From Sedimentisphaerales bacterium (GTDB lineage: Bacteria; Planctomycetota; Phycisphaerae; Sedimentisphaerales; SM23-30): a stretch of 64,000 nt of DNA. Location: the NCBI GenBank assembly GCA_963666285.1, contig OY762711.1; one strand, written 5' to 3'. Below, piece by piece: positions 20,777 through 41,224 of this stretch. The first letter of the stretch is position 1; every line of letters begins with the position of its first letter. The notes under the pieces are model-generated. The model was not told where the DNA came from, did no database searches, and worked only from the letters and a program-made list of their open reading frames with translations. Both the position numbers and the translations under genes were made by a program.

Positions 20777-23700
20777 CTAATATAGATCATTACTAATTTG
20801 CCTGTTTTTCTGCTGAGACAAAGTCAGCATTACAACAATAACAATTATACAAAGCAGCATGAATATAAAAATGAACAATGTCGGAATCCAGATTATGCCG
20901 GGAACTGCCGACTGAGATTCCATAATAGATGCGGGTATGAGTTCTTCAGGACCATTAAACAGCGTTCGGGTTAATTGCAGGTCAAACCTTTTTCCTGTCG
21001 AAGACACTCCCGCCAGATCGATGACAACATCATACAAACCGACTTTGTCAGGAGCAGCAAAACTTGCCTCACCTATCATCCGCCCGCCATTATCAGAAGT
21101 TAAACTGGACATAGACCTCTGGTATATCTTCCCCCTGACACCCGGATAGCTTAGAACCGCTTTATCTACCCTGGCACCGGCATTCAGAGTCAGACTTGCC
21201 GTAACCTGCTGGCCTGGCATATATCGAAATTCGTCCAGGTCAAGAATGGCTCTGATACCGTTAACTACCGATGACTTTATTGTATAAAACTCTCCTTCCT
21301 GAGGAACATCATCAGCAAATATTTCTATTTTCCATTTTCCTGATATTGGGTTTAACAGTCTGAAATAACTCATCGCTCTCGCTGCATCATCAAAAAAGCT
21401 GACATCTGCAGAAGATTCCTGAGGAATCAAATTCCCAAATGGATCAATCAGACGAAGAGTAAGATGTGACCCCTGCCAGTTAGCCCCCACTGTAAGTGCA
21501 TCTGAATCAGATGGAACTATAAAATCAAAACTCTGGGTAGCAAATGGCAAAATCCATGAATCTTTTGCCAGCAATAGGCTTTCTCCTGCAATCCCCAACT
21601 GAATTCGACTAAAGATACTTGAGATACTATCTGTTCCGGCCCTGAAAAATTCTCCACCGGTATTTTTTGCGATATCCTGCAATAGCTGACTGTCTGCATC
21701 AGCACCGTAGGCCACAGTATGAACAGGAATGGAAGAATCGCGGAACTTACTGGTATAGGCTGTTAAGTCTGGAAGTTCGTCTTTACCATCGGTAAGCAGT
21801 AAAATAGCTTTCCTGGATGATGTTTCGTCCTGGAGCTGTTGGAAAGCAGTATTCAAACCTGTCTTGATTTCTGTCCCACCATTAGCAATCATAGAATCCA
21901 TGATTCCACTAATTTGCGTCAGAGATATTTGAGATGTTTTTGTTAATGGTAGCAGATTCTTACTATTGTCAGAAAAGACTGTTACACCTACCTGATCATC
22001 GAGCCTGTTAACATATAAAGCCATAAATTCGTCAATTGCTTTTTTCACCTGGGTCAGCTTATTATAATCTTTCATACTCCCGGAATTATCTACCACCAGG
22101 CAAATTGATGTGCCTTTACTTCTGAAGGCAAAGATTTTTGCTAACCAATTAATATATTTATTATTTTCTTTATGAGACGAGTCCATTGCTGAATAGATCT
22201 TATCAATGCCATGTGCGTGAAGTGGTGTATTGATCAATGAACGATCCGGAACGATAATCAATTTACCAAACGTCTGGGTAGCACCTATCGCACATACAGC
22301 ATCTCCTAATTTATTCAAAAAGTTTGCGTGAGGCATAAATAATTGAGCTTCCTGTACCAGGTTTCCATTATTATCTACACACTGGTTCAACTTATCCAGA
22401 GGATCACCCTGGTAAACATAACTACGGATATTATCTGAATCGTATGGCAGCTGGCGAGTATTAATCCAATCGATTATCCCTTTTCCGGGAGCCGCAGGAT
22501 TGAAAGTAACAGTTTCCAAACCAGTAGCAAGCCCAGCTGCTATAGCAAGTCCGCCGCCCAGGGAATGGCCGGTTATTATAACCTGGTCACCCAAAGCATC
22601 CTTAACTAATAGAGCATCATCAACAGCATTCTTATATTGCTCAGAAGTAAAGCCTAAATAATTCTGTACATTATTAGACCAGTCTCTAATATCAGAAATC
22701 TCAGTTCCTCTGAAAACGAGTACGGTTTTCCCATTAAGATTATCATTTCTATAGATTACAGCGTAATATCCGCAAGAAGATAATTCATAACTATCAATTA
22801 TTCTCCAGTCAGACGGCAAAACACTATTTCCATAAGCAGCCTTTGATAAAAGAGCCAGCTGTGAATCCTGTTCAATTACTGCTTTATCAAGATCATTTAT
22901 TGAAACTTGAGAGTCATAGCCTTGTCCTGAATTTGTATGCTGATTAACTATATCGGCAACATCATCAATAATTGTCTTTAGATCATTATCCTGTGCGACA
23001 TCTGCGATCGTAGAAGCAATATCATAGAATGTGCCGGCTTTCTCCATATATGGACTGCCATAGTATAAAACTTTACCTAAATTTATCGCAGCATCTTTGG
23101 CTGCTCCGGCTAGATGGGAAGAATGACCCCATAGCTGACGTGCGTTATGGGTCATAGTGCCTGAAGCACTCCAGCCTGTTGCAGCACTATAGGCAGAAGT
23201 AGTGGTGAGTCCGCCTGCCAAATGTAGAAATTTACCACCTATATTACCATATGCATCAACTTTATCGTGGTCAATTATACCTATATCATCAGCCAGCATT
23301 GCATAACCGGTTGCTGCCGGACGATAGACATATTTTTCCAGTGGAGATTCGACATCACCATCAAAAGGATTATATCCGTTTTCAGGATGCTTTATGTCGT
23401 GAACAATATTGGCACCAACAGTGTAAAAAGCATCTGCCAAATGAGCCGCTGCGAGAGCAGCAAGGACAATCGGATTGGTGCTTTGTTCGCCAATAATTGA
23501 AGAATTGAGCATTGCCATTTGGCCTTCTACCCATACAGCATCTGACCATGCCGGCTTTTTAGCATTGCCTGCAACATGCATAAATGAATATCTTTTCATC
23601 TCTTCTGACAACTGGAAGTTTCCTTCCATATCGAGCAAAGGAGAGCTGGTATAAGCATCAACTGAAATTATATTGTTAACATATCTAAAGGAAGACTGTC

Positions 23701-24598
23701 TGCTATTGCCTGCTATACCATTCAAACTAAAACCTGCATAATAGACAACGGTTTTGGCATTATCCATAACAAAAAAACCATCAAAACTTCCTTTAATTGG
23801 CACTCCAACTGATGTCTGGATAGGAAAATCAGAACTATGATATTTTCCCAAAATATAGTTTTTATTAGCAACCTGAAGCGGAATCAGTTCAAAGTCAACA
23901 TTTACTTTTTGAGTTACCCCTGCGACGGAATGCAGCGAAATTTGCTGACGCCAATTGGCCGGTATGTTTTTTGCGACTGCCAGAGGCAAAATAGAGTTGA
24001 CATAATCAGACATATAAGGCAGCTGCTCTGAACTGAGCGACTCATTGCTTATCGCCCGGTTAAAACGCAGGCTGTTTATGCCATTAGAAAACGATATTGC
24101 AACAGGGTCCTCCACACCTTCATTAAGATTATATGCAACTGGATAATATTCATACATTATCTGGCCGGGAAGAGGATATTTCTTAACATCAATAATCGAA
24201 AAGATTTGACGTGAATAATTCTCGTAACCAGTACAGGAAAAACCCTGCCAATTTAACATAACAAATGAATTCGGGCTAACTTCTGACGTAGAAGAAGTTT
24301 GCGTTTGCTGATTGTTATTGGCTTGAGACTGAGACTGGGAAGGGAGAGAAGGTTTAGTTACCGATGTGGCTGGTGGTTTCGATATAGTCTGAGAAGAACT
24401 GGTTGATTTAGCTGCAGGTATTACAGGTTGTTTTGACACTGTCTGAACATTAGTATTACTGCCATTTGAACCCGTATCAAGCTGAGAGAAAGCCACAATT
24501 ATCATTACAACAACAAACAAAACCACTAAAATAATGAAAAAAGAAAGAATAAATATCAATGGAGTTTGTTTTCCATTAGATTCTGTAGATGACTGCAT
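20777..24598 (-). CDS. Membrane-anchored lipase (alpha/beta hydrolase) + vWA domain protein
   Basis: N- and C-terminal TM; LVFRGTE, ITGHSLGGGLA, GDPL, HAHGI; vWA MIDAS VDNSGSM, GGT, LLTDG. Confidence 0.85.
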   Translation of the reverse strand: MQSSTESNGKQTPLIFILSFFIILVVLFVVVMIIVAFSQLDTGSNGSNTNVQTVSKQPVIPAAKSTSSSQTISKPPATSVTKPSLPSQSQSQANNNQQTQTSSTSEVSPNSFVMLNWQGFSCTGYENYSRQIFSIIDVKKYPLPGQIMYEYYPVAYNLNEGVEDPVAISFSNGINSLRFNRAISNESLSSEQLPYMSDYVNSILPLAVAKNIPANWRQQISLHSVAGVTQKVNVDFELIPLQVANKNYILGKYHSSDFPIQTSVGVPIKGSFDGFFVMDNAKTVVYYAGFSLNGIAGNSRQSSFRYVNNIISVDAYTSSPLLDMEGNFQLSEEMKRYSFMHVAGNAKKPAWSDAVWVEGQMAMLNSSIIGEQSTNPIVLAALAAAHLADAFYTVGANIVHDIKHPENGYNPFDGDVESPLEKYVYRPAATGYAMLADDIGIIDHDKVDAYGNIGGKFLHLAGGLTTTSAYSAATGWSASGTMTHNARQLWGHSSHLAGAAKDAAINLGKVLYYGSPYMEKAGTFYDIASTIADVAQDNDLKTIIDDVADIVNQHTNSGQGYDSQVSINDLDKAVIEQDSQLALLSKAAYGNSVLPSDWRIIDSYELSSCGYYAVIYRNDNLNGKTVLVFRGTEISDIRDWSNNVQNYLGFTSEQYKNAVDDALLVKDALGDQVIITGHSLGGGLAIAAGLATGLETVTFNPAAPGKGIIDWINTRQLPYDSDNIRSYVYQGDPLDKLNQCVDNNGNLVQEAQLFMPHANFLNKLGDAVCAIGATQTFGKLIIVPDRSLINTPLHAHGIDKIYSAMDSSHKENNKYINWLAKIFAFRSKGTSICLVVDNSGSMKDYNKLTQVKKAIDEFMALYVNRLDDQVGVTVFSDNSKNLLPLTKTSQISLTQISGIMDSMIANGGTEIKTGLNTAFQQLQDETSSRKAILLLTDGKDELPDLTAYTSKFRDSSIPVHTVAYGADADSQLLQDIAKNTGGEFFRAGTDSISSIFSRIQLGIAGESLLLAKDSWILPFATQSFDFIVPSDSDALTVGANWQGSHLTLRLIDPFGNLIPQESSADVSFFDDAARAMSYFRLLNPISGKWKIEIFADDVPQEGEFYTIKSSVVNGIRAILDLDEFRYMPGQQVTASLTLNAGARVDKAVLSYPGVRGKIYQRSMSSLTSDNGGRMIGEASFAAPDKVGLYDVVIDLAGVSSTGKRFDLQLTRTLFNGPEELIPASIMESQSAVPGIIWIPTLFIFIFMLLCIIVIVVMLTLSQQKNRQISNDLY

Positions 24599-24681
24599 AC
24601 CATACTCCCCATGAATTTGAATAATTTCACCTTTCCCAATACAAAAGCAGAATAGCAGATAAATACGAATATCAGATTAAA

Positions 24682-24716
24682 AAAAAACAGGAGTTTTTAT
24701 ACAACTCCTGTTTTTT
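24682..24716. terminator. Intrinsic (bidirectional) terminator
   Basis: AAAAAACAGGAGTT-tttatac-AACTCCTGTTTTTT just after the OMP gene stop. Confidence 0.8.
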
Positions 24717-24726
24717 AACAAATCAA

Positions 24727-25512
24727 CTAAAAAGAAAAATGAAGCTGAGCATACCAGGCTTTAAAGCTGTCACGAACACTGCCAGCTTCCATATACTGAC
24801 CCTTATATGCACCAATTATAGAAACATCATCATTAATGCTATAAGAAATACCTATACTGCCATTGGTACCAATACCAATTGAATTTTCACTTTCTAACTC
24901 ATAACCACCAGAGGTTGCTGCATCCTGGCTTGCATATAATGCCATAACCTGGGCATTCCAGAACCAGCTCCATTTATCACTGTCAAAAAGAGCATCCCCA
25001 GAACCGGCACCCAGGAATATGCCACCATAATTAGTTTGCTGATCGAACATATCAAAGCCAGTAACTTCATAATCTCTATCAACATAAGTATATTTGATAC
25101 CGACTGTACCATATATATCTTCAAGACCAAAGAAATCAGGATATGACAGACCGGCTTCGATGTCATAACGTTCCATCTCAGCATCAATCTTCACACTTTC
25201 AGCTTCACCTTCCAGATCAATATCAGGAGCATATGTGAAATTTGCAAACCAGCCATTACCATCATAATCACTTTGATTGTAAAGCAAAGAATACGCTCCC
25301 CCCTGGGCATCCCAATCACCAGACAAAAAGCCTTGTTCTGTCCTGTAATCAAACATTTCCATATAACCGAAACTCAAAGTGCGAACAACTCCATTATCGG
25401 TTGAAGTATAAGTTTGATTTGCAACAGAGACATCTTCATCAGCAGCTACTGCAAAAGCAGCAAAACTGACTAAAACAACAGTCAGACATTTAATTAATTT
25501 CATACATTTCAT
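24727..25512 (-). CDS. Outer-membrane beta-barrel protein
   Basis: Signal peptide, alternating aromatic beta-strands, C-terminal AWYAQLHFSF. Confidence 0.75.
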   Translation of the reverse strand: MKCMKLIKCLTVVLVSFAAFAVAADEDVSVANQTYTSTDNGVVRTLSFGYMEMFDYRTEQGFLSGDWDAQGGAYSLLYNQSDYDGNGWFANFTYAPDIDLEGEAESVKIDAEMERYDIEAGLSYPDFFGLEDIYGTVGIKYTYVDRDYEVTGFDMFDQQTNYGGIFLGAGSGDALFDSDKWSWFWNAQVMALYASQDAATSGGYELESENSIGIGTNGSIGISYSINDDVSIIGAYKGQYMEAGSVRDSFKAWYAQLHFSF

Positions 25513-25617: not shown

Positions 25618-28600
25618 CTAAATAGGCGGCCTGGGCCGTTTTCTTTTTTTGACTTCAAAAATAACATACTCTGTTTCACTATCATCACTTTTGGTGTTTT
25701 CATTAACAGCAACTACCCAGAAATAACATTTATCCCATTTAGCCTCTACAGGATTATCTTTTGAAATGTCAATAGAAGTACCTGATGTCAGCTCATAATA
25801 AAAGCTGCCTTTATTTTGATTTTTCTCCTGGTAATAGTAAATGCGATATCTGGTCGCACCCAAAACCGGTTTCCATCTTAAGGTATAGTTACCCTTACCT
25901 TTACTAATAAGTTCAATATCTGGTTTGGATAGTTGATTGCATTCACTTGCCTTGAAAGAGCCTAATGTTAATTCGCTAAATTCACTCTCAACACTTTCCT
26001 TTTCATTGACAGCCTTAACCCAATAATAATATTTTTCATTAGTTTTAATATCAGAATCATCATAGGAAAGTGCTGATAGCCCTCCGGTAAGCTCTTTTTT
26101 CGTGCCGGTGCTGCTACCGGACTTGTATAACATATATTTGTCCGCACGATCAGAAGCATCCCAGGAAATCTTAAGATAACCTTTGTCGCTTTGCTCAACT
26201 TTTAGATTTACCGGAGGGTCAAGCTTGAACTCCCATTTAACATCAATCTCAGCCTGACGAGAAAAAAGATCATTTTTAGCGAAAACCTGATAAGTATATT
26301 TGCCGCTGGAAGCCAGTGTATCTTCAATAGAGCATGTACCGGCAGCTGTTTTAATGCCAGTCAACTCAGTCCAGGAGTTTTCTCCTGTTTTTTTCCTTTT
26401 CACACTATATTCAGCATTAGAAACAGAATTCCATTTTAATTGAATAGAATCATCATTTACTTCATGACTCAGGGTAATATCTTTCAATAAATAACCAGGG
26501 AACAATTCTTTCAAATCAACCAATTTTGATATCGTTAGCTCACCAAAGTCATTTTTCACTGAAAACAGATAGTAATAATTATAATCCCCCGCCTCAGCCC
26601 TGGATACTATCTTTTTATCCTCATAAGAACTGGTGCTAATTCCTTCCCATAATCTTTTTTCCGGTTCATTTTTGTTATTTGCATATGAAATAACAAAATT
26701 ACCTTTCAAAGTATCCGGCCATTTGATTCTAATAGCTGGTTCACTATTAATAGTAAATCCTGTAAGGATAATATCATTTTCAGTTATCTTAGGTATATAT
26801 TTATCATACAACTTCTTTTTCAAATCAGAAGAACGGTCATTGTTGGTGTTGTATTCTAAAGACAAATCACATAATTGAATTGCTTGTTTAATATCACTAT
26901 CAGAATTACTTTTAGATAAATTATCTGCTTCTGAATATAAAGCGTCAGATTTTTCTTTAGTCCATGACTCCCAGGCCTTGGGCAACTCTTTTGACAATTC
27001 CATGTATTTTTGGGCAGCAGCAGAATAATTCTCTAAACTTTCGTAATCTTCTGCTTTTTTAATAAGTTCTTTAAGTACGCCAGGCGGAAATTCATTATCC
27101 AGGTATAAAGAATTTGCAGAATATAAAGAATTCTGCATGTTAAACAAATTTTTAGCGTTTTTATAAGATTTCCATATTTCCCATTTAGCAGAAACAACTT
27201 CCTGCAGTTTAGTATAGCCGGTTATTGCCAGAGAATAATCCTGGTCATTTTCAGCTTTTTGAGAATCGGCAAGAGCCTGCTGAATCTCATCCTGTTTTAA
27301 GAAAGTATTTATATCAAGCCCTTCAGAACTGAGACTATCTACATATTCTTCGTATTCATTTATAATTTTTTCTAATTGACTCTTAAGTTTTGCAGTTCTA
27401 TCATCAGAATCTCCTCTTACATCATCTGGCAGACTTCTTATTTCTGCTTGAAAAGTCACAAAGGTGTTAACAAATACTGCATAATCTTTATCTTTTATTA
27501 ACCCGTTTAACTGCTCTTTGCGTTCTTTGAAGCTTTTTTCATATGGTTGAATTATTTCTTTTGGACAACTTTTTCCTTGTTTGGCAATTTCTTCGTCAGC
27601 CAGTTTTATAAGATCATCCTTTTCAACTGCAAAATGTTTTTCAATATCAATTTTCAAACTACTGACTTTGCTAACATATTGCTGTTTATCATCTTCAAAC
27701 AGGTCGTCGATACGTTTTTTAACTGACTCAAGGTTTGTATATAAGTTTTTCAATTCATAAAGCGAACACTGATCCAGATTGTTGTTTTTTACTAAATCAT
27801 CAATTTCATCAGCGGTTTCTTTTGCTTTTGCCAGCCGTCCTGTAAGCTTTTCCATTTGCCATTGATCTATTAATGTTTTATCAATTAACAATTTGAGTTC
27901 AGATAGTTTTGTAACAGCTGTGTTATACTGCTTTAGCTTTCTTACTACATCCTCTGACGATTTGTCTGAATTAACAGATTTGCTAATATCCCACAAATTA
28001 TTTGCCTGGATTGCTCCAGAAACAGCCTGCCCGTTAGCAGAATAAACATTATTCCCATTCCAGATACTTTGCCACTGCTTCAGCTTATTTCCCAGCAGTT
28101 TTTCATCATATCTTTTATCATTTCTACTATTTAACACATTCAAGACATATAAAATAGTTTCAATATCGTTCCATTTAATTTTATCATTAATCTGCATGGA
28201 ATATCTATTAGCAGGAGATTTCTGAACACACTGGCGAAGTAATACATTTTCGACATAAGACAATGTCTTATTATAGCTATTTCTAAACATATCAACAGAA
28301 CCTTTGCGATCTAATTCTGCCAATACAGTGTTATTATCAAAAGCCAAACAATCATTACAAACCCTAACTGCATTATAAAGATATTTTGACGAACTCCAGC
28401 TGTTTGAGTCAGGATATTTTAGCGGCTCTGACGAATCTAATTTTCTTAAATCGGCAAATTCCCTTATAGCATCATCAATCATATCTGAAGGGATAGAAGG
28501 TTCATATGGTTTATTACTCAAAAATAATATACCAGCAATTACCGCCAGCATAAATATAGTCAGCAGCATGCCGGCCATAATAAAAACTGCGGCCGGAGTA

Positions 28601-29616
28601 CGTTTGGTCGGGACTAACTGCATGCTGGGAAGCTTACTACGCTGGTCTTCCAATACCTGCTTGAGATCTTCATCTTCAAAAAGTGTTGACCTCAGGCCAA
28701 GAGTATGCTTAGCTGAATGCTGTACTATACTTTGCGACTGCAGTGATTCTGCAACTTCGGAGGCACTATTGAAGCGGTTATCCGGGTTCTTCTCCAGCAG
28801 TCTCAGGATAATATTGTTGAGCCAGTCGGGCAGATCAGGCCGTTTTTCTTTGGGCGGCACCGGCTTTTGCTGAATGTGACTAGCCAAAACCGAAACAGGA
28901 TTGCCCTGAAGGTCCGGGAACGGAACATCACCAGTGGCCATCTCATACATAACTATTCCAAGACTGTACAGGTCAGACCTTGGGTCTAATGATGATTTTG
29001 AGGATGCGTGTTCGGGTGACATATATTCAGCCGAGCCAACAAGCTGAAATTGCTGGGTCAGTTTTCGGTTGGTCTGTATATATGCAATACCGAAATCCAT
29101 CAATACCGGTACAGAATAGTCACTTCTCAGCAACATGACATTACTGGGTTTCAGATCACGATGGACAATTCGTTCGCTATGTGTATGTGCATGCTGTAAG
29201 GCATTACACAATGGTATTGTTAAATTGACAATATCAGATACATCTATATATCGATTTGTATCCCGATGATTTTTGACAATCTGATCCAATGAAGTGCCAT
29301 CAAGCCACTCCAAAACCATATAATACCAGGTACACCCCTGACTGTCTTTCTTTTCGCCGGAATTATAGAAGCGAACAATACCATGATGATTTAGCTTGCT
29401 TAAAACTTCTGCTTCCCTGACAAATCTCTCAACATTAACAGGGTCGGAACAAAAGTGCGGTTTTAATACTTTAACAGCAACTATTCTGTCATTTGCATGG
29501 TCATAGGCCTTAAAAACATATGCCATGCCGCCTTCGAGACGATCATGCAGATCAAAGCCGTCAAGATAAAAGCCATCATTATTGTTTGAGCCAAAATCTG
29601 TCATCTTAGATGCCAA
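25618..29616 (-). CDS. Transmembrane Hanks-type Ser/Thr kinase with large helical ectodomain and FN3 repeats
   Basis: GGMAYVF, VAVKVL, HRDLKPSN, DFGIA, GSAEYMSPE, DLYSLG; single TM; C-terminal FN3 motifs (ISWDAS..YYYWVKAVN). Confidence 0.93.
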   Translation of the reverse strand: MASKMTDFGSNNNDGFYLDGFDLHDRLEGGMAYVFKAYDHANDRIVAVKVLKPHFCSDPVNVERFVREAEVLSKLNHHGIVRFYNSGEKKDSQGCTWYYMVLEWLDGTSLDQIVKNHRDTNRYIDVSDIVNLTIPLCNALQHAHTHSERIVHRDLKPSNVMLLRSDYSVPVLMDFGIAYIQTNRKLTQQFQLVGSAEYMSPEHASSKSSLDPRSDLYSLGIVMYEMATGDVPFPDLQGNPVSVLASHIQQKPVPPKEKRPDLPDWLNNIILRLLEKNPDNRFNSASEVAESLQSQSIVQHSAKHTLGLRSTLFEDEDLKQVLEDQRSKLPSMQLVPTKRTPAAVFIMAGMLLTIFMLAVIAGILFLSNKPYEPSIPSDMIDDAIREFADLRKLDSSEPLKYPDSNSWSSSKYLYNAVRVCNDCLAFDNNTVLAELDRKGSVDMFRNSYNKTLSYVENVLLRQCVQKSPANRYSMQINDKIKWNDIETILYVLNVLNSRNDKRYDEKLLGNKLKQWQSIWNGNNVYSANGQAVSGAIQANNLWDISKSVNSDKSSEDVVRKLKQYNTAVTKLSELKLLIDKTLIDQWQMEKLTGRLAKAKETADEIDDLVKNNNLDQCSLYELKNLYTNLESVKKRIDDLFEDDKQQYVSKVSSLKIDIEKHFAVEKDDLIKLADEEIAKQGKSCPKEIIQPYEKSFKERKEQLNGLIKDKDYAVFVNTFVTFQAEIRSLPDDVRGDSDDRTAKLKSQLEKIINEYEEYVDSLSSEGLDINTFLKQDEIQQALADSQKAENDQDYSLAITGYTKLQEVVSAKWEIWKSYKNAKNLFNMQNSLYSANSLYLDNEFPPGVLKELIKKAEDYESLENYSAAAQKYMELSKELPKAWESWTKEKSDALYSEADNLSKSNSDSDIKQAIQLCDLSLEYNTNNDRSSDLKKKLYDKYIPKITENDIILTGFTINSEPAIRIKWPDTLKGNFVISYANNKNEPEKRLWEGISTSSYEDKKIVSRAEAGDYNYYYLFSVKNDFGELTISKLVDLKELFPGYLLKDITLSHEVNDDSIQLKWNSVSNAEYSVKRKKTGENSWTELTGIKTAAGTCSIEDTLASSGKYTYQVFAKNDLFSRQAEIDVKWEFKLDPPVNLKVEQSDKGYLKISWDASDRADKYMLYKSGSSTGTKKELTGGLSALSYDDSDIKTNEKYYYWVKAVNEKESVESEFSELTLGSFKASECNQLSKPDIELISKGKGNYTLRWKPVLGATRYRIYYYQEKNQNKGSFYYELTSGTSIDISKDNPVEAKWDKCYFWVVAVNENTKSDDSETEYVIFEVKKRKRPRPPI

Positions 29617-31206: not shown

Positions 31207-32469
31207 TTATCTTATGCCGTACCCTTCAGTTTGAGCAGTATCATTCATACCGGGATCTACCTCAGGGAGATTTTGTCCTGATACAGATGCCGATTTTCTT
31301 CCACGGAGCTGAATTCCGGCAATAAGTAATCCAGCAATAATAATCAAGGCTAAAAATGCCGGGACACTAATAGACAAAATTCTTTCCCAGAAAGATTTTG
31401 CAGTGAATATAGCAGTCTGGAAACTGGTGCTAACTTGAGTTTCACCTATTTCAGGCTCATTGATAACTATAGCGAAATTATGTGTCAGGCCGTCACCCGG
31501 ACACAAATCGGCAGGAACGGTAACTACCAGTCCCAGATGCGGGGCTGTCAATGTTTCAAACTGAGGCCTGTAGTCGGTTTTATTATAATCAGGCTGCCAT
31601 ATCGCACCGCCGGTATTGCTACTGATCAGATCAGCATGAGATTCGTTATAGTTTTTACCTTCGGGAGTGAAGATGATCACCTTGATATTTTTTTCAATGG
31701 CCTTGTTCTTGACAGCTTCAAATGTAACACTGCTGGCATCATCCTCAAGAGTACTGAAAACAATCAATACTTTTCTCTGGACCAGTTTCTGGTCGTCGGT
31801 AATATCAGGATAACTGTCAATTAAAGAATTCATGGCATCGTATATTCTGACAGAAGTAATATCATTTAACGACATCACATCTTTGCGGCAGGTCTTGACA
31901 CCACTATCGATATCATTTTTTACCTGCTGGACATCATCACCAACAGTGCGCCAGTTCACAAATGGAGTAGGACTGCTTTCATAGTTGGCTGATGACAGAT
32001 AAATCATATCTTCAGGAGCGAGCTGATCAATAACCTGACCGGCACATAACTTCAACTGAAGCATAACATCGCTTAACGCCCAGCTCTGGTCAAACAAGAA
32101 CGCGACATGAAGCCCCATATCACCGTAATAGCTGTGAGCCATCGAAACCAGATCCTGCTGAACAAGATTACCATCTGCATAAACCTGGACATCAGTTAAA
32201 TCGACATTTCCCAGGCTCACACCACCATCAAGGGCAAAGCCAAGATAATGAATACCCTGATCCTGGTCAGGAAGATAGCAGAACTGACTGCCCTGGCCCA
32301 TCGGAAGCTGAAACCCACATGCCGGATCTGTCGATGGCTGATCGATAGTCATAGCTCCATTACTATTGACCAGAGAACAGGGTAACCCCTGCAGTACAGT
32401 ATCCGCATATAAAAAGTTCGCCGTTAATAACACTATCGAAAAAATGCTGATTAATTTTTGATACTTCAT
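31207..32469 (-). CDS. Exported vWA-like protein with C-terminal membrane anchor (degenerate MIDAS)
   Basis: Signal peptide; VAFLFDQSWA, RIYDAM, KVLIVFSTLED, ISSNTGG; C-terminal TM. Confidence 0.7.
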   Translation of the reverse strand: MKYQKLISIFSIVLLTANFLYADTVLQGLPCSLVNSNGAMTIDQPSTDPACGFQLPMGQGSQFCYLPDQDQGIHYLGFALDGGVSLGNVDLTDVQVYADGNLVQQDLVSMAHSYYGDMGLHVAFLFDQSWALSDVMLQLKLCAGQVIDQLAPEDMIYLSSANYESSPTPFVNWRTVGDDVQQVKNDIDSGVKTCRKDVMSLNDITSVRIYDAMNSLIDSYPDITDDQKLVQRKVLIVFSTLEDDASSVTFEAVKNKAIEKNIKVIIFTPEGKNYNESHADLISSNTGGAIWQPDYNKTDYRPQFETLTAPHLGLVVTVPADLCPGDGLTHNFAIVINEPEIGETQVSTSFQTAIFTAKSFWERILSISVPAFLALIIIAGLLIAGIQLRGRKSASVSGQNLPEVDPGMNDTAQTEGYGIR

Positions 32470-32505: not shown

Positions 32506-35500
32506 TTATTTTTTTACTGTTTTAGTGCTCATATAATCCTGACCACTTTCATCTTTTCCTGTCAAACTTATTTCTATTATATTATTAGGATTTTCTATTA
32601 TTTTAACTTTACTGTCGTCTGTAACAACAATACTATCAGACTTATCATTAACTCTTGTAATATTAGAACTCAATATTTCTTTCCCACTCCCTTTGATATG
32701 AATCTTAATCACACCACTAATAAGGTCAACATTAGCCCATTCACAAAATATGGATTTTTTATCCTTATTATATGTAGCTTCAAGAATATAAATACCAAGA
32801 TTTGCGTTTACCTCGACAGACTCGTCAAGTTTATCTGTACCTGATAAGTTAGTATTATTACCTGGACTACTAGGTTTACTATCAATATCTAATAAATCAA
32901 TAGATACCTTTATTTGACTCCAGCTTGAGTTCCCAAAACGATTTTTAGCTCTTACAAAATAGATGTATTCTTTGATGGGTTTTATTTTATCTAAATGATC
33001 TTTAAATTGTTTGTCATCATATTCTATTTCATTATAATCTGAAACAAGAATATTGTCTTTTTCCGGACTATAATGGCCAATTCTTCCCCACCCGATATCA
33101 TAAGAAACAGGAAAATTATCAAAAGCATCACCATATAAAACTTTAACCGAATCACCATATTCATTTAAACTTGCCGCAGGCTCAGGTTTCCCATCTTGAC
33201 TAGTACTAAGACGATGTGATAAACAAGGAATAAATTTATTTACAATGGATTTCATTAATCCATTAATTTCTTTTTCCACATCATAGGAATGTAAAGGTTC
33301 TGACTCAAATTTTTTATAACCATTTAACAATCCCTCTAACTTAACATACAATTTCACAGCTTTTTCATAATCTCCAATTTGCTCAATTCCATTGTCCTTT
33401 AAATAACTTTCTATTTTTCCATTATAAGACTCCAGGAAACCATTAACATAGTCATTATAATCAAAAGGAGAATTAAGATTTACCACAGAATTGATAGCAT
33501 CATGCAATTTACTACAACCATGAGGATCAATATCACTATCGCACAACTCTTGGATACCTCTTAAGCTATCCTTACACTTAGTATTCCAGTTTTTACAGAA
33601 TTCATTATATTTATTATCAATAACCGTGCGAAGAGAACCAAGAATACTATAAGCCAGACCAAAATCATTTCTAGAAATTTCATCATTAACCAGACTCAAT
33701 TTATCATCAATAATTTTATTTAATTCCCTTTTAAACTCTTCTTTTAACTCATTATTAAATTTCTCGCATAATTCATCGCAACGAGTAGAAAGACCTGCCT
33801 TCTCAGATTCCAATATACTTTTAATTTCTTTTACCAGAGATGTTTTTACTAAATCGTATTTTCCTAGAACATCTTTTTCTCCCATAAAAAGTAATTCTGT
33901 GCTCTGGCTATCTAGATTATCAAATAACGCAATTAAGTTGTTTGGGTCACTGTTAGAATTATTTTGAATAACATCGAGACAGGTATATATCTCCGTTTCA
34001 GTTTTTGCAGCATCAGTAATTCTCTGGTTTACAACCTCGATATTCGGTATAGATATTTCATCTCCAAACTCACATCCAGTTACAACAGTATTTATAGCTT
34101 GAGCATATTTTTTAGCTTTTTCAATAGTCATATCTTTTGCGTTAAAAGTAGTTTCGGAATCCCAAAAAACATTTACTAATTTAGAAGCATTAAAATATTC
34201 TTCTTTTGGATTATCATTTCTGATATCAAAGTCTTTTTGACCACCCCAGACAGCCTCCCACTTATTTAGCTCATTTTCCAAGGTAGTGGAAGGCTCGCTG
34301 CACAAAGAATTAATTATTATAAGAAAATTCTTAACTTCATCCCAGCTAACATTTGCAATTGATTCAGGTAATTTACTGCGACCCTCAACAGGATAAATAA
34401 AACACATTCTAAGTAAATTCTGCTGAATCATATCATATGATTGAATATAAGCATACCGCATTTCAGAAGGACAATTATTTTTTAGTGATTCAAATATTAT
34501 TTCAGAACCATCTTGACTGGAACAATTATAAAAGTTTTTTATTAAGCCACATAGATTAACAATATTATTAGCTCGATAAAATTGACTCAAACTCCGCCGA
34601 AGATCATCATATTTAATTATAGGTACAATATTACCACCTATTTCTCCGACAACATTAGAAGTAGCATCACTACCAGAAAGTTCTTCATTATTTTCACCAG
34701 TTTCGGAATCAAGATCAAGATTGCTGCCTATTTCCTGAATTCCACCCTGTGTTTGAGTACTATCATCACTTTTCTCAGTTGTGGGAGTATCACCATTGGT
34801 AACTTCGGGGGCATTGCCTTTATTCGCAAAAAGGACGAAAATCAGCACAATTGCGACCAGGCAAGTCAGCGATATGCCGCCGAGCAGGAAAAGGGGATTA
34901 AATCGTCCGGAACCGGAAGAACCACTTTCATAAGATTCTTCTGAAAAGGCTGTTGGAACAGCTGAGACATCGGTCTGGGCAATCTTTTTCTTGCTTAGAT
35001 CTCCGATTTTTCCGCCTGGCAGGGTTATAATTTTACCCGGCTTATAACCAGCAGGCATCTGTCCAAAATCACTGCTTTGTTCGACCCTGAAAATAAGACA
35101 GGTAGCATTATCAGAACCATCTCGCCGGACCGCAGTAGTAACAACATTCTCGGCAGCTGCTTGCAATAATGGCTGAGAACTGATAATCGCAGGGTAGTCT
35201 TCCGGTCCCATACACAGTGGAGGATTTTTTTCCAGGCCACCATGAACACCATCACAGCAAAGTAAGAATGTTTGCCCTGAAGCAATATCAATAGAAAACG
35301 GATCAATACGCGGGTCAACGGCACCACCGGTACCGACCATATGAGTAACCTGGTTGCCGCCTACATGCTGGACGGCCACCTCAGGGGCAACGCCCTGCTT
35401 AATGAGATCATTCAACGCCGAATGGTCCTCGGTAAGCTGGGTAGAGGAAACAGGGTCAACCTGGTAAACGCGGCCATCGCCAACATGAACAATAAGCACC

Positions 35501-35865
35501 TTATTATTAGTAACAACGGCCAGATCCGCGGTAGTTCCCATAGCGGAGACATGTTTTGCCCGAGCCATATTATATATCTGGCGGTTTAACTCAGAGACAT
35601 ACTGTTTCATTTCACAAAGCAGAATCTCCTCGGAAGAATCCCCTGTATATTGCGAAAAATGCTCAAGCAGCTGGTTGACCACAAGCTGGCTGGCCTCATC
35701 TCCGGCATGACCGCCACCCATCCCATCAGCCACGACAAAAACAGCCCTGATTGTTGATGGAACAGGTGATATCCAAACGCCCGCAGAATCCTGATTGATA
35801 GACCTCTCTTTACCTACATGCGTGGCAATACCGAAACTAAATCCAACTGTCTGTGATTCCAGCAT
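32506..35865 (-). CDS. Receptor-like PP2C (PPM) Ser/Thr phosphatase with TM and large ectodomain
   Basis: THVGKERSINQD, VADGMGG, HVGDGRVY, LLCCDGV, DGSDNAT; single TM; ~750-aa extracytoplasmic part. Confidence 0.92.
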   Translation of the reverse strand: MLESQTVGFSFGIATHVGKERSINQDSAGVWISPVPSTIRAVFVVADGMGGGHAGDEASQLVVNQLLEHFSQYTGDSSEEILLCEMKQYVSELNRQIYNMARAKHVSAMGTTADLAVVTNNKVLIVHVGDGRVYQVDPVSSTQLTEDHSALNDLIKQGVAPEVAVQHVGGNQVTHMVGTGGAVDPRIDPFSIDIASGQTFLLCCDGVHGGLEKNPPLCMGPEDYPAIISSQPLLQAAAENVVTTAVRRDGSDNATCLIFRVEQSSDFGQMPAGYKPGKIITLPGGKIGDLSKKKIAQTDVSAVPTAFSEESYESGSSGSGRFNPLFLLGGISLTCLVAIVLIFVLFANKGNAPEVTNGDTPTTEKSDDSTQTQGGIQEIGSNLDLDSETGENNEELSGSDATSNVVGEIGGNIVPIIKYDDLRRSLSQFYRANNIVNLCGLIKNFYNCSSQDGSEIIFESLKNNCPSEMRYAYIQSYDMIQQNLLRMCFIYPVEGRSKLPESIANVSWDEVKNFLIIINSLCSEPSTTLENELNKWEAVWGGQKDFDIRNDNPKEEYFNASKLVNVFWDSETTFNAKDMTIEKAKKYAQAINTVVTGCEFGDEISIPNIEVVNQRITDAAKTETEIYTCLDVIQNNSNSDPNNLIALFDNLDSQSTELLFMGEKDVLGKYDLVKTSLVKEIKSILESEKAGLSTRCDELCEKFNNELKEEFKRELNKIIDDKLSLVNDEISRNDFGLAYSILGSLRTVIDNKYNEFCKNWNTKCKDSLRGIQELCDSDIDPHGCSKLHDAINSVVNLNSPFDYNDYVNGFLESYNGKIESYLKDNGIEQIGDYEKAVKLYVKLEGLLNGYKKFESEPLHSYDVEKEINGLMKSIVNKFIPCLSHRLSTSQDGKPEPAASLNEYGDSVKVLYGDAFDNFPVSYDIGWGRIGHYSPEKDNILVSDYNEIEYDDKQFKDHLDKIKPIKEYIYFVRAKNRFGNSSWSQIKVSIDLLDIDSKPSSPGNNTNLSGTDKLDESVEVNANLGIYILEATYNKDKKSIFCEWANVDLISGVIKIHIKGSGKEILSSNITRVNDKSDSIVVTDDSKVKIIENPNNIIEISLTGKDESGQDYMSTKTVKK

Positions 35866-35900: not shown

Positions 35901-36680
35901 TTATCCATTAAAATCTGGCAAATGTTCAGGTGATTCTTGAGGTTCAATGATCATAATTTTCAGCCTGGTTTCACCTAAAACAAGATAGTCACCATCTTCC
36001 AGAACAGTCTTTTTGTTAATTCGCCCTTTTTCTTCACCTCGTTCCAAAATGGTACCATTAGCAGAGCCAAGATCAATCACGCTTACTTTCTGGGTGTCCT
36101 GATCTTCCAGAAGCATACAATGTTCACCACTCATATTGTTATCCTCAGGGAATGACAATTCGCAACTGGCATTTCTACCTATCCTGTTTCTTTTTAACGA
36201 GCCGTCCGGACCTTTCATCGCAAGAGAGAAGTTCATCCCATGATTTTTTCCGCCAAACTGGGTTAGATTTACTACCCTGCTTGGAACAGCATTGATTATC
36301 ATGGTACCTTTATTGATAGCAGGCGCGGTAAGCGGTGCCCGATTGGCCATCTCAGCAACCTTTCGATCAGCTTCTTCACGTGCCCTTGCAATCTCAGCCT
36401 GACTCTGTGCCAACTGCTGCTGCATACTAGACATCATTCGCTGACGTTCGATCTCTTCCGGAGTAGGTCCGCCCGGAACAATAATGTAAATGAAAAGTCC
36501 AATTAAACCTAATGCCGGGATAGCAACAAAGGCGGCCCAGCCGACACTTTTACCTGACCGTTTAGCGTCACTTGCAACCCAGATAGCCATGAGGATTTGA
36601 ATAATCACTGCCAACACAGCTAAGCCGATCCAAACATATAATAACGTATTGCTATTAACATTCGAGCTAGTTAAATTCAT
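35901..36680 (-). CDS. Two-TM, coiled-coil, FHA domain protein
   Basis: WVASDAKR..W (PLDc_N-like TM pair); FHA IGR..MSGEHC..DLGSANGT. Confidence 0.88.
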   Translation of the reverse strand: MNLTSSNVNSNTLLYVWIGLAVLAVIIQILMAIWVASDAKRSGKSVGWAAFVAIPALGLIGLFIYIIVPGGPTPEEIERQRMMSSMQQQLAQSQAEIARAREEADRKVAEMANRAPLTAPAINKGTMIINAVPSRVVNLTQFGGKNHGMNFSLAMKGPDGSLKRNRIGRNASCELSFPEDNNMSGEHCMLLEDQDTQKVSVIDLGSANGTILERGEEKGRINKKTVLEDGDYLVLGETRLKIMIIEPQESPEHLPDFNG

Positions 36681-36699: not shown

Positions 36700-37122
36700 T
36701 TATCTACCTAAATCATTCCGATTAAATTCACTGATATTCAGAAGCAATTCTGTGCTTCCAACCCAGATACGATCACCATTTTTAAGAAATTCTTTTCCAG
36801 AAACCTGAATGCGATTATCAATTCCTCTACAAACTAAAGTAGGATTAGTAGAGGCTAAATTAAATAAACATAAATGCCCATCTTCCATACGAATTTCACA
36901 ATGCCGTTTACTAACTGAAGGGTCACCACTTATGACAACCTGGCATTCTGCGCTGCTTCCAACAACATTACGGACCGGATTGCCCTGAAAATCTTCAATA
37001 GCAATTGAATATTCACGGTGTAAATCCCTTCCGGAAACAACCACCAGACGGGCACTCCTTCGTCCAACCCCCTGAGGCTGGATAATAACCGTATGTTTTG
37101 GATTCCTATCAGAGTTATTCAT
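36700..37122 (-). CDS. Stand-alone FHA domain protein (duplicate of the upstream gene's C-terminus)
   Basis: VGSS..VSKRHC..STNPT..GDRIWVG; high identity to 37142-37535. Confidence 0.85.
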   Translation of the reverse strand: MNNSDRNPKHTVIIQPQGVGRRSARLVVVSGRDLHREYSIAIEDFQGNPVRNVVGSSAECQVVISGDPSVSKRHCEIRMEDGHLCLFNLASTNPTLVCRGIDNRIQVSGKEFLKNGDRIWVGSTELLLNISEFNRNDLGR

Positions 37123-37141
37123 ACAATTTCCTTTCTTCCTT

Positions 37142-38140
37142 TTATCTGCCTAAATCATTTTGATTAAATTCGCTTACATACAGCTGCAATTCTGTACTTC
37201 CAACCCAGATACGATCACTGTTTTTAAGAAATTCTTTTCCAGAAACCTGGATACGATTATCTAAACCTCTACAGACAAGAGTTGGATTAGTAGAGGCAAG
37301 ATTAAACAGACATAAATGGCCATTCTCCATGCGAATCTCACAGTGCCGCTTGCTAATAGATGGATCACCACTCAAGACAACCTGACATTCTGCACTGCTT
37401 CCAATAACATTATGAACCGGATTGCCCTGGAAATCCTCGATGGAAATGGTATATTCACGATGTAAATCTCTGCCAGAAACAACAACAAGTCTGGCACTTC
37501 TAAATCCAACCCCCTGAGGCTGGATCATAACTGTAGCCTTTGACATATCTCCACCGGTTGTTATTGTCCTGGTTGGAGGTAACGGCGTACCGCCAGCCGG
37601 AGGAGTTAAAGGCGGCAACGGCGGTCTTTTACTCGCTCCCCCCAGATAAACCATCAGGAATACCGGAAAAATTAAAGAAAGCGCTACCAGCAAAATCACC
37701 ACAATCACATTTGCGACTAAGATATCTTCTACACTAACAGAGCGAGAATGGTAATTCACCATTGAAACAAAGATCATAAAAATGAAAACGGTTAAAATAT
37801 CGAGAGTCAGCTTCATAATACCATACACAAAGCAGAAAGTTCTACCCCATCGTTTATTCTGAGCCAAACCAATCCCACCGATCATCAATAGCAAAGGGAT
37901 TAGTAAAATTAAAGACAGAACTAACACAGATAGAGCGATCTTGTGTGTAACAGCAGCTAAAACAGAAGCCCAAATATGCGAAATTGATCCAAAAAGAGTA
38001 AAAACAATATCACCAATTTGCAACAAAATCATATTGCCAGACATTTGCCCTGCAATTAAAAGTGCGCAACCGACAAAACCAAATACACCGAAAATAATCG
38101 CTACAACACCTGCGGCTGTAGTATTCTTTTGATTATTCAT
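37142..38140 (-). CDS. Multi-TM membrane protein with Pro-rich linker and C-terminal FHA domain
   Basis: Four or more hydrophobic helices, PPLPPLTPP linker, FHA IGSS..ISKRHC..STNPT. Confidence 0.85.
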   Translation of the reverse strand: MNNQKNTTAAGVVAIIFGVFGFVGCALLIAGQMSGNMILLQIGDIVFTLFGSISHIWASVLAAVTHKIALSVLVLSLILLIPLLLMIGGIGLAQNKRWGRTFCFVYGIMKLTLDILTVFIFMIFVSMVNYHSRSVSVEDILVANVIVVILLVALSLIFPVFLMVYLGGASKRPPLPPLTPPAGGTPLPPTRTITTGGDMSKATVMIQPQGVGFRSARLVVVSGRDLHREYTISIEDFQGNPVHNVIGSSAECQVVLSGDPSISKRHCEIRMENGHLCLFNLASTNPTLVCRGLDNRIQVSGKEFLKNSDRIWVGSTELQLYVSEFNQNDLGR

Positions 38141-38158
38141 AACCGGTTCTCCTTTTTA

Positions 38159-40216
38159 TTATTTTTTGTAAAATTCATCAACGGTAAAGGAATATCCCTT
38201 TTGCCTTATTTGATGAAAAACATATGCCGAAGCATTTTTGTTACCAATTAAATAATAACCACAACCAAGATATTCAAGTACATCTTTTACAGAGTCTTTA
38301 TCCACTCCGGAAGGATCTTCGTTCAACCAGTTTTCATATTTCCCCAGGATAGCGATAATTTTCTGGCCACTAGAAGAATTCCTTTCCATCTCCAAAGCTT
38401 TAGCATAAAGAACCCTGTCTTCCAGTGCAAGATCCACCTGAGGTACTTTACCATAGAACATTCTTGCTTTTTCATTTTCTTTACACAAAGCAAACACCTT
38501 GGCCAACCCTTTAACTAAAGAGTCATCAGGAACGGCATTTTCAATTTGCTTTGCCAACTCTAAAGCTTCTTCCTGCTTTTCCAGATTTGCATAGACTAAA
38601 GAAAGCTCAAGATAAGCTTGCGAAGGGACCAGGTCATCACCTTTACTTTCAAATAAATCTATGTAATCTTTCAAGACATCGACAGCGCGATCATCGTTGT
38701 ATTTATTAAAATCAACCACTAAAGCTTTTCTTGTCTCCCAGGAGATATCTCTATATTTACCAATCTGCCTGATTTGGTCATAAGAATTAATATAACGTTT
38801 GAATATTTCCCAGTTTTCAGACATACTATTAAAAGACTTTACCGTATCGAAAAGCAATAAATTCAGAGCAGATCTGTATTCCTGAAAATCGCCAAGTAAT
38901 ATTTCGATTTTTTTTGCATCAACTAATTTGTCGTTTATTTTCTCTTTAAATACTTCAACCTTATTTTTCACATCCAGAATTTCTTCCAGATCCCCTACTT
39001 CTTCAATAAGTAACTTAATATTATCCGGAAACTCGTAATTAGAAATTTCAGACGCCATCTGCCTGAAAGAATTAAGATTATCTTCAAGCTCATCTATTTT
39101 GACTTTAGCGTTATTTAAATCTGCGTCACTGAAATACCCGGAAATCTTGTTACACAAAGGTTCACATTTATCAAACTCGGTTAAGGCATTATCAAACTTT
39201 CCATTTACTTCAGTAAGCACCTGCCTGACAGGCTTAACGTAATTTTCAGTAATAAAACTCTCAATATCTCCCGGCGCAACAACAAAACTATTAACAGCGC
39301 GATCACCAGCTTTTTCCAAAGCCAGCGTAATTTCTCCCCCGCCCGGATTCCTTAGCAAAGAAGAATATTCTATCACAGTGTAAGTTGACAAGGCTTTAGA
39401 AATATTGCGGCCACACCCGGACAGATCTTCCATCTTAGAAAACATCGTCCCTCCGCTGGCATTAACAAGCTGCCTATACAAACCATCTGCAGCATAGTCC
39501 TTAAGCGGATTCACCGATACCAGATTAAAATTGACAGTATATTTTTTGAAATAGTAATTTATTCGATCGTAATCAGAAACAAAGCCTCCATGATCATTTG
39601 CAGCAATCAAAACAATTGTAGTCTTTTTCTGGTCACTACCAGGAATTGCAGCAAACTTTTTCATGGCAAGTAAAATTGCATCCCCAATTGGCTGTACCGA
39701 CAATGCTAATGGTCGATCAAGTTCCTTGCAACTATCAATCTCTTTTGTCGCTTTGTCACTACTAATCCAATCATGCACAACTTTTGCCTTCAATTCCAGG
39801 TCTAAGCCGTTATGTTCAATAGTAGTAGCTACTTTTGGTGTCATGGCAATTGTAAGAACTTTATCAGAGACTTTAAGTTCGCTCAATAATTTTTTAGCAC
39901 CTTCTTTAATCTCATCGGTTTCAACTTTACCATGATTATCAAAAATGAAAATATAATTATTAGAAATCCCAACTTCTTCACGAATCTCAATTGAATCCGA
40001 GGCTATAGTTTTATTATTTTCAGATAATGAAATCTCATCACCTAAGCCTCCATTATCCTTTGCATATATAGTGATTTTCGGAAAAACGTCCTTTGATGTC
40101 TTAACCTCAACAATATCTAATGCCGGCCAAGGCTGCTTTACAATTTCAGCTCCACAACAATATGGCATAGATAAAAGAACGAGAGCTCCCCAAATCAGTT
40201 TATTTTTTATAAACAT
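38159..40216 (-). CDS. Exported vWA-like / coiled-coil / TPR-like protein
   Basis: Signal peptide; YIFIFDNHGK, IGDAILLA, IVLIAAND, LVNASGG; helical C-terminus with TPR-like AYLELSLVY..EEALE and EYLGCGYY. Confidence 0.65.
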   Translation of the reverse strand: MFIKNKLIWGALVLLSMPYCCGAEIVKQPWPALDIVEVKTSKDVFPKITIYAKDNGGLGDEISLSENNKTIASDSIEIREEVGISNNYIFIFDNHGKVETDEIKEGAKKLLSELKVSDKVLTIAMTPKVATTIEHNGLDLELKAKVVHDWISSDKATKEIDSCKELDRPLALSVQPIGDAILLAMKKFAAIPGSDQKKTTIVLIAANDHGGFVSDYDRINYYFKKYTVNFNLVSVNPLKDYAADGLYRQLVNASGGTMFSKMEDLSGCGRNISKALSTYTVIEYSSLLRNPGGGEITLALEKAGDRAVNSFVVAPGDIESFITENYVKPVRQVLTEVNGKFDNALTEFDKCEPLCNKISGYFSDADLNNAKVKIDELEDNLNSFRQMASEISNYEFPDNIKLLIEEVGDLEEILDVKNKVEVFKEKINDKLVDAKKIEILLGDFQEYRSALNLLLFDTVKSFNSMSENWEIFKRYINSYDQIRQIGKYRDISWETRKALVVDFNKYNDDRAVDVLKDYIDLFESKGDDLVPSQAYLELSLVYANLEKQEEALELAKQIENAVPDDSLVKGLAKVFALCKENEKARMFYGKVPQVDLALEDRVLYAKALEMERNSSSGQKIIAILGKYENWLNEDPSGVDKDSVKDVLEYLGCGYYLIGNKNASAYVFHQIRQKGYSFTVDEFYKK

Positions 40217-40258
40217 CCGACTATCCTTTCTTTTTATTTATAGTATCTCTTGACCTTT

Positions 40259-41224
40259 TTAGAAGCTACACCCGATAACTATTGATCCTATTCTGTCGAC
40301 ACCATGCTGTTCTTCAAATTCTCTAGTATAGAATGTTTGAGAATAGCCAATTTTCAAAGATTTATAATGATGCATTAAACCTACCTCAAGTGCGCCGACC
40401 AGAGGTTTCTCAGAAAGACCGGTAAGAAAACGATTATGTTCAACAGCTTTACCATTAGCCCTGACAAAAAGATAACTTGCCTTAGAATCCGAAACTTCAG
40501 AGGAGTGACCTATAGGTTTGTCGAGTCTTCCCGGTCCAAAATCATCATCAAGGTTAAATCCACAACGAAGAATAAACCCTAACTCTGCATGCCTGTGTAA
40601 AGTACCGGCAGTAAATCCGTACTCTGTCATAAAATCAATACCTTCAGGCAATTCAATAAGAGGCAATTGGCTTTTTTCTCTTACATAATAAGAAAAATCA
40701 AATGTCATCTCATCACTCAACTGATTTTCCCAGCCATAAGGTTCATTTTTATCCATAAGATCATGGACAAACTCCTGTGTATCCTCACCAAAAGCAGAAG
40801 GCCCAATAAGTCCGACATTTAATTCAGTCAATTCAATCTTTTTCGAATCTGCCCGCTGCATAAAAATACCTGAATACAACCAGCCGGCAAATTTCATATC
40901 CACATCAAACTGTCTATCCAGTTCATCAACGTAATCCGGAGTGTAAAGATTTTGTCCAACAAAAATACCTAGCCGCGAAGTATAGTCACCGTCAAAACAC
41001 CATCCGCCTAAACTACTTAATAAATCCCATTCAGGCACCATATCTGTTGTATATACTATTTTTGTGCCATTAGTATAATGCCGATCTGTTTTGCCATTTG
41101 GTTTCAAACTCTGACTATCATTGTCGGCGTATAGATCAATGACAGACTGCGAAAATAATGCATTTGCTACTAAAAATAATACTGCAACTACTAAAAACGA
41201 ACGGTTTCGGTTTACTGGACTCAT
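40259..41224 (-). CDS. LpxR-family (DUF2219) lipid A deacylase-like outer membrane protein
   Basis: DND, DRHYTNG, GQNLYTP, FAGWLY, GLIGPSAFGE..Q..VH, GWENQL, TREF; C-terminal Phe. Confidence 0.85.
   Translation of the reverse strand: MSPVNRNRSFLVVAVLFLVANALFSQSVIDLYADNDSQSLKPNGKTDRHYTNGTKIVYTTDMVPEWDLLSSLGGWCFDGDYTSRLGIFVGQNLYTPDYVDELDRQFDVDMKFAGWLYSGIFMQRADSKKIELTELNVGLIGPSAFGEDTQEFVHDLMDKNEPYGWENQLSDEMTFDFSYYVREKSQLPLIELPEGIDFMTEYGFTAGTLHRHAELGFILRCGFNLDDDFGPGRLDKPIGHSSEVSDSKASYLFVRANGKAVEHNRFLTGLSEKPLVGALEVGLMHHYKSLKIGYSQTFYTREFEEQHGVDRIGSIVIGCSF

Follow-up and report, generated by a model that had tools for sequence, protein, structure and literature searches.

A rare, conserved operon core for predicted phospho-threonine signalling in Planctomycetota that has no fixed partner machine

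Sets of Ser/Thr kinases, PP2C phosphatases, FHA domains, and vWA domains have been described as accessories to secretion systems or to tubulin-like operons. In the threonine phosphorylation pathway (TPP) of type VI secretion systems (T6SS), a periplasmic partner (TagR or RtkS) activates the membrane kinase PpkA, Fha gathers in foci, and the PP2C phosphatase PppA resets the pathway (PMC6082577); the T7SSc-j subtypes of type VII secretion systems (T7SS) comprise kinase, PPM phosphatase, FHA, and vWA classes, with helical extracytoplasmic regions in the kinases (PMC11217815); predicted vWA/FtsZl1 operons combine secreted or membrane vWA proteins with protein kinases (PMC2875224); and the Escherichia coli genes yegL-yegK-yegI (vWA, PP2C, and kinase; 10.1101/303594) as well as GAP1-N2 loci (PMC7159879) bring these three classes together in one operon. 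Here, we present a computational analysis of a cluster of eleven co-oriented genes that spans positions 20777-41224 (minus strand) of a 64-kb stretch (the window) of contig OY762711.1 from a Sedimentisphaerales bacterium. We conclude that it holds a real, conserved, and rare operon core of this recurring type of phospho-threonine module, and that no fixed machine goes with it in this case. Because the set is kept in two distant lineages without a common machine, it offers a minimal case for what such a module does alone.

The eleven open reading frames, named g1 to g11 in reading order, are separated by 42, 18, 19, 19, 35, 36, 4, and 32 nt between g1 and g9, by 105 nt between g9 and g10, and by 128 nt between g10 and g11, in agreement with a first-pass annotation that had described eleven co-oriented genes with tight gaps among the first nine. 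Seven gene types make up the core: a predicted secreted protein with a degenerate vWA domain, a helical region, and TPRs (g2, 38159..40216); two membrane FHA adaptors, one with multiple transmembrane segments (TMs) (g3, 37142..38140) and one with two TMs and a coiled coil before the FHA domain (g5, 35901..36680); a receptor PP2C with phosphatase, TM, and large periplasmic domain (g6, 32506..35865); a protein with signal peptide, likely degenerate vWA domain, and TM (g7, 31207..32469); a Ser/Thr kinase joined by a two-TM hairpin to an FHA domain (g8, 29649..31202); a receptor kinase with TM, helical ectodomain, and FN3 domain (g9, 25618..29616, which occupies a core slot); and an anchored vWA protein (g11, 20777..24598), core apart from its lipase. 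Pfam matches (LpxR, four FHA, two kinase, one PP2C, one fn3, and one vWA, the latter in g11) back most of the earlier domain calls, and hydropathy reproduces the membrane segments noted then. Of the calls without a Pfam match of their own, the vWA domain of g2 held up through orthologues and that of g7 is weakly supported; the lipase is weak in Pfam and clear against PDB. Both kinases have the catalytic Lys, Glu, HRD, and DFG, and g6, which matches PP2C and NF033484, has NQD, DG, GD, DG, and DN with the metal-binding Asp residues. The GC content at third codon positions (GC3) of the cluster is within the genome's range. An assembly artefact was rejected, since a single contig from a public run contains 21301-41300 unbroken and with zero differences; that run is possibly the source of the sequence.

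The core types recur in largely the same order in two distant Planctomycetota lineages. Besides the host genome (G000, 97% complete), carriers are G326 and G438 (89% and 67% complete), which belong to one genus in a family other than that of G000. In a six-frame search of 400 genomes of the phylum, g5 had a single full-length match, in G326, where the core is spread over three contigs with genes cut at their ends. One contig encodes, in order, a TPR protein, a multi-TM-FHA protein, a 2TM-FHA protein, and a PP2C (cut); a second an ectodomain (cut), a kinase-TM protein with a frame break, and a kinase-TM-ectodomain protein; and a third a vWA-TM protein (cut), a secreted vWA-TM protein, a kinase-2TM-FHA protein, and a lipoprotein-like vWA-TM protein. 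For the G326 counterparts of g3, g5, g6, g8, and g11, the cluster genes rank first among all G000 proteins, and the matches are reciprocally best. The single contig of G438 may be concatenated, and genes at the margins of its two cluster pieces are broken; two FHA genes and a PP2C-TM-ectodomain gene follow one another at one place, and a kinase-ectodomain gene and a vWA-TM gene at another. The metagenome contig L130, identical to G326, completes the first G326 gene as signal peptide-vWA-helical-TPR, and the metagenome contig L129 (38% GC) carries counterparts of g2, g3, g5, and g6 at 39-76% identity and is without g4. A tree was built from 50 of the 118 kinase domains, with a background partly picked by a pattern taken from the cluster kinases; it unites g8 with the four kinases of G326 and G438 in a single clade at support 0.98, to which g9 and one outside kinase attach at 0.81. 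The scattering of homologs without synteny that the first-pass annotation had considered was not observed; order is kept in G326, G438, and L129, and we rejected a chance neighbourhood as an explanation of the cluster.

The copies in the second genus contain several irregularities. In G326, a contig end (L038:1-64) matches an inverted-repeat-like 64 nt at L039:5205-5268 inside the secreted vWA-TM gene, and the first receptor-kinase gene (L038:5642-8087) shifts frame in a proline-rich repeat between TM and ectodomain. In G438, the second vWA gene is truncated next to an inverted piece of its own sequence (L044:16390-16947). The breaks at L038/L039 and L044 reflect either an assembly artefact or a rearrangement hotspot.

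The core is rare. Its frequency in the phylum was 1/400 in two overlapping samples, and the g5 family was found in 0/400 genomes of the host's order. In the class of G326, the g11 orthologue marks 1/25 genomes, though G438 in the same set carries other parts, and a profile of the g11 N-terminus found 1/3 genomes of the G326 genus and 0/300 genomes of the phylum. A word-indexed search with g7 returned only itself among 7126 candidates; residues 280-517 of g8 gave no full-length relative and two FHA-only matches, and g11 no full-length relative and eight vWA-only matches. For g5, no full-length relative was among 51 candidates in genome contigs or 76 in viral contigs, and plasmids gave none; in 40 relatives the matches of g8 were confined to its kinase or FHA domain. 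A kinase-profile scan of 79 loci found the core only in L043 and L044, and loose FHA or PP2C neighbours in five more. The insertion boundaries are not definable because the genes flanking the cluster are not syntenic in congeners.

Compared with the T6SS TPP, the cluster has the same trio with intact motifs, i.e., a membrane kinase with a periplasmic domain, a PP2C phosphatase, and an FHA reader (intact in g5 and g8 only), and a periplasmic partner as likely input is also shared (PMC6082577). It departs from this pathway in that G000 lacks a T6SS, the phosphatase is a receptor in its own right, the FHA adaptors are membrane-bound, the kinases number two or three, and the TagH model scores below its cut-off. 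The cluster differs from T7SSc-j in that the window has no TsxC or WXG100 gene, the host is diderm, and TscE and TscF are described as cytoplasmic (PMC11217815) while the vWA proteins here have signal peptides or TMs. In contrast to the vWA/FtsZl1 operons, no Tubulin_2 match was found in G000, G326, or G438, and the cluster contains neither a GTPase nor an OmpA gene. The vWA-PP2C-kinase adjacency of the Ter/YegLKI type is present in g6-g7-g8 (with the reservation on the g7 vWA domain given above); however, the cluster adds FHA adaptors, paired receptors, and periplasmic vWA proteins to what are three small genes in yegLKI. With TolQ-like or TPH-vWA motors (PMC12204202), the vWA domain is the one common part; no tolQ-like gene was found beside the cluster vWA genes, and no MotA/ExbB family member among the G000 cluster proteins or counterparts scanned, where the TM region of g3, which has no Pfam match, leaves room for remote likeness. 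In the open full-text literature, the scope of which excludes subscription journals and supplements that may list neighbourhoods, the domain combination turned up only in PMC7159879 and PMC11217815.

No single machine accompanies all carriers. In G000, there was no match to VipB, to TerD (the ter family searched), or to Tubulin_2, and by tblastn the genes around TssC of G326 and G438 had no T6SS-type match there. TssC is present in G326 and G438 away from the cluster pieces, and is also present in 3/4 relatives of G326 in which the cluster was not found. An FtsK-like ATPase gene adjoins a WXG100 gene in G000 ∼650 kb from the cluster; this ATPase is encoded in 20/24 genomes of the family, none with the cluster, and in 1/16 other genomes of the order, and was not found in G326 and G438. 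Given the completeness of G326 (89%) and G438 (67%), misses in them are no proof of absence. Membership in a T6SS, T7SS, FtsZl1, or Ter system was rejected, as the defining machine genes are not in the cluster or the G000 locus, in line with the earlier proposal of a stand-alone writer/eraser/reader system outside a T6SS/Ter locus. PADLOC gave kinase-domain matches (PD-T4-6 and mad6), one PP2C-domain match, and no match for 8/11 proteins; membership in one of its defence systems is not supported, as these matches are to the generic kinase or PP2C domain only and the system-specific partners are lacking.

The periplasmic domains of g6 and g9 are paralogous over ∼440 residues (E 4e-9), with a score of 166 compared with 53.5 ± 7.2 in 100 local shuffles (z 15.7). 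G438 keeps the PP2C-TM-ectodomain layout of g6, the kinase-TM-ectodomain genes of G326 and G438 fill the g9 slot, and three G326 ectodomain pieces have a common 260-residue block at 42-51% identity. By these comparisons, the ectodomains diverge fast between lineages and yet stay related within one. AlphaFold modelled g9 as helical and then beta at low confidence (mean pLDDT 39; 35 in the second AlphaFold model made), and the Atlas gave only TPR-like leads for its ectodomain, all below 0.9.

All FHA binding motifs are kept only in g5 (G-R, SxxH, and N-G) and g8. In the FHA domain of g3, the usual Arg is missing (G247-S248) and N-P stands in place of N-G, g4 likewise lacks the Arg, and the G326/G438 counterparts of g3/g4 lack the FHA Asn. 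g5 is 76% identical to its L129 counterpart and 33% to those in G326 and G438; the full-length G326 orthologue of g8 is 31% identical over 507 aa (E 6e-58). A T-x-[VILM]-[IL] motif is present in 8/9 non-kinase adaptors at a distance of 57-60 residues N-terminal to the FHA SxxH, with Thr126 in the linker of g5 and Thr203 in that of g3; the exception, L129 g3, has T-I-Q-I nearby. The motif was found in 0/2 kinase-fused FHAs and in 1/24 control FHA domains, and is expected in ∼4% by chance. FHA domains prefer a hydrophobic residue at pThr+3, which the motif fits. It also fits the FHA proteins OdhI and GarA, in which an N-terminal Thr is phosphorylated (PMC8546545). We suggest that the linker Thr is a candidate phosphosite.

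Among the vWA proteins, which we take to be adhesin-like and to face outward, g2 is 39% identical to an L129 protein with TPR_2 and matches the L130 protein (Pfam vWA and TPRs) at E 2e-6; its MIDAS (metal ion-dependent adhesion site) is lost (FDNHG), whereas DxSxS is retained in L130. There was no match for g2 in PDB, and a g2-g7 profile comparison was not significant. The vWA assignment of g7 comes from the ESM Atlas (0.93) and an own-built profile (E 0.028), and global alignment with its positional counterparts, the vWA-TM proteins of G326 and G438, gives 21% and 14% identity. g11 consists of an N-anchor, a beta domain of unknown type, E-x-x-T-N-P with hydrophobic helices, lipase, vWA with complete MIDAS (D837/S839/S841, T909, and D937), beta domains, and a C-terminal TM. 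Its G326 orthologue shares the N-terminal beta region, E-x-x-T-N-P, the hydrophobic helices, vWA, and the C-terminal anchor; however, it has a lipobox-like start and lacks the ∼250-residue lipase. In g11, this insert (22140..22900) has GHSLGG with Ser679 and the candidates Asp732 and His796; its best PDB match is 7UBZ ("T6SS lipase effector"; E 3e-11), and it matches NF047388 at E 4e-12, below the cut-off of that model. By these matches, the lipase is of the antibacterial-effector type, like the Tle-type phospholipase effectors of T6SS, and unlike these it is embedded in a membrane-anchored vWA protein, and no VgrG or PAAR gene was identified next to it.

With slightly less than even confidence, we favour reading the cluster as a self-contained switch at the cell surface that responds to contact or to envelope damage. 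All of its steps are proposed by analogy with PpkA/RtkS/Fha/PppA (PMC6082577), starting from the parts observed, their order in two lineages, the intact motifs, the g6/g9 ectodomain relationship, and the linker Thr. The periplasmic vWA proteins g2, g7, and g11 would engage the helical ectodomains, and this engagement would bring the kinase domains together and switch them on. The kinases could then phosphorylate the adaptor Thr located 57-60 residues before the FHA SxxH, and g5 and g8, whose FHA domains are intact, would bind the phospho-Thr, gathering adaptors and kinase in a membrane patch, with g3 and g4 mainly acting as donors of phospho-Thr. The receptor PP2C g6, which its paralogous ectodomain would keep at this site, would reset the switch. 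The likely output would be the deployment of the doubly anchored g11 with a variable middle payload, here an effector-type lipase. The first-pass annotation had proposed envelope lipids or contact/conflict; we favour the latter half over lipid sensing because the lipase is of antibacterial-effector type. The analysis offers for testing g5 Thr126 and g3 Thr203, a receptor kinase and a receptor phosphatase whose ectodomains are paralogous, and, within the membrane-anchored g11, a swappable domain of toxin type.

Several observations weigh against a self-contained switch. The lineages are just two, and the G326 and G438 copies are fragmentary; each carrier holds some secretion-like machine elsewhere; the likeness of kinase and phosphatase ectodomains in G438 is weak (z 4.9), and ectodomains are not detectably alike between lineages (z about 1). 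The orthology of g7 is weak. The linker motif counts only as a lead, because it was defined after the alignment had been seen and the nine adaptors are relatives. In G000, a terminator-like hairpin would split g11 from the other genes, and no immunity gene was identified for the g11 lipase.

Alternatively, the cluster may be a detached post-translational regulator, of PpkA/PppA/Fha-like or T7SSc-j parts, of a secretion machine encoded elsewhere, given that these enzyme classes control T6SS and go along with T7SS subtypes (PMC6082577 and PMC11217815) and that candidate machines exist in TssC of G326 and G438 and the FtsK-WXG100 locus of G000. We regard such regulation in trans as unlikely: the machine varies by carrier, G000 has no TssC or other T6SS-locus match, the FtsK gene was not found in G326 and G438 and is present in family members without the cluster, TssC also occurs in relatives of G326 in which the cluster was not found, and the T6SS stretches examined in G326 and G438 contain no cluster gene. 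Very patchy spread, fast-diverging ectodomains, a toxin-type lipase, and two PP2C-FHA/kinase-FHA/vWA triads beside recombinases elsewhere in G000 would instead suit a mobile YegLKI-like vWA-kinase-PP2C conflict module that expanded into the membrane, senses attack by phages or rivals, and poisons or arrests the cell. This possibility is rather improbable, as by Pfam no mobile-element gene lies beside the cluster, viral contigs and plasmids gave no match, the PADLOC matches are generic, and GC3 is unremarkable for the genome. It is likewise rather improbable that g11 is a surface-tethered polymorphic toxin, the payload slot of which (hypothesised to follow E-x-x-T-N-P and the hydrophobic helices) is swapped between lineages; it would make the cluster a contact weapon free of a secretion machine, in which the matched fast-evolving ectodomains of receptor kinase and phosphatase tell self from non-self and gate g11 via FHA clustering. 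The toxin reading is weakened by the terminator-like hairpin ahead of g11 and by the failure to identify an immunity gene.

Sensing or remodelling of envelope lipids through LpxR and the lipase is very unlikely. In its favour, the gene for the LpxR-like outer-membrane protein (g1, 40259..41224; PF09982, E 6e-64) lies 42 nt from g2 and is likely co-transcribed, and the lipase motifs are intact. However, LpxR orthologues occur in 3/3 congeners and 5/24 genomes of the family, all without the g5 family, and adjoin unrelated genes in all three neighbourhoods examined; LpxR was rejected as a core part on these grounds, and is probably a neighbour; in the other carriers, the available sequence stops short of the region upstream of g2. 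The first-pass annotation's bracket of lipid-acting enzymes fails because LpxR sits elsewhere in congeners that lack the cluster and G326 has no lipase insert, and the lipid enzymes at the cluster ends are not fixed parts.

Two further genes are not supported as core. The soluble FHA gene g4 (36700..37122) is a recent tandem copy of the g3 C-terminus (88% aa and 84% nt identity) without a counterpart between g3 and g5 in L129, G326, or G438; accordingly, all four FHA genes counted earlier are confirmed by Pfam, and one is a local duplicate. The orphan g10 (24727..25512) is predicted to be an outer-membrane beta-barrel from sequence features, namely a signal peptide, a terminal Phe, and 12 alternating segments, and had no match in Pfam, NCBIfam, or PDB. 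The outer-membrane tier proposed for the cluster was not upheld, as the g10 slot of G326 holds no barrel gene. The terminator-like hairpin noted earlier between g10 and g11 (24682..24716) was recovered as 14 pairs and a T-run at 24716-24682, as a consensus match only.

Elsewhere in the carriers, the G000 locus L151 (G000:C1:4299786-4304821) encodes the FtsK-like ATPase (1291 aa, two TMs), the WXG100 protein, and a 192-aa helical protein; it is a type-VII-like locus, found here in a diderm member of the Planctomycetota. The T6SS loci lie at L160:12145-19663 in G326, adjoining the gene for a 4033-aa repeat protein, and at L158:17099-20000 in G438, with TssC identified by Pfam; by likeness, they probably also include TssA-, TssB-, and two Hcp-like genes. 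The triads of G000 (L152/L153; G000:C1:2967631-2970703 and 3433198-3436178) are related, read PP2C-FHA, kinase-FHA, and vWA, and each adjoin a serine recombinase or integrase; they are candidates for mobile modules of the yegLKI type to which FHA domains are fused.

Within the window, ∼1 kb of AT-rich DNA separates the cluster from divergent genes for an ECF sigma factor, a FecR-NPCBM anti-sigma factor, and a GH92 glycosidase (42256-46907). At the other end, 180 nt downstream of g11 and outside the cluster, a gene of higher GC for a PilZ and cyclic nucleotide (cNMP)-binding protein (19829-20596) is kept in two congeners in differing neighbourhoods, and three imperfect direct-repeat pairs (40-64 nt) in non-coding DNA at 18510-19269 are possibly like repetitive extragenic palindromic elements. 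A chemotaxis cluster at 47061-63874 encodes CheB, CheR, CheW, CheA, CheY, four proteins with methyl-accepting chemotaxis protein domains, and one dCache protein; close orthologues of this CheB are present in congeners.

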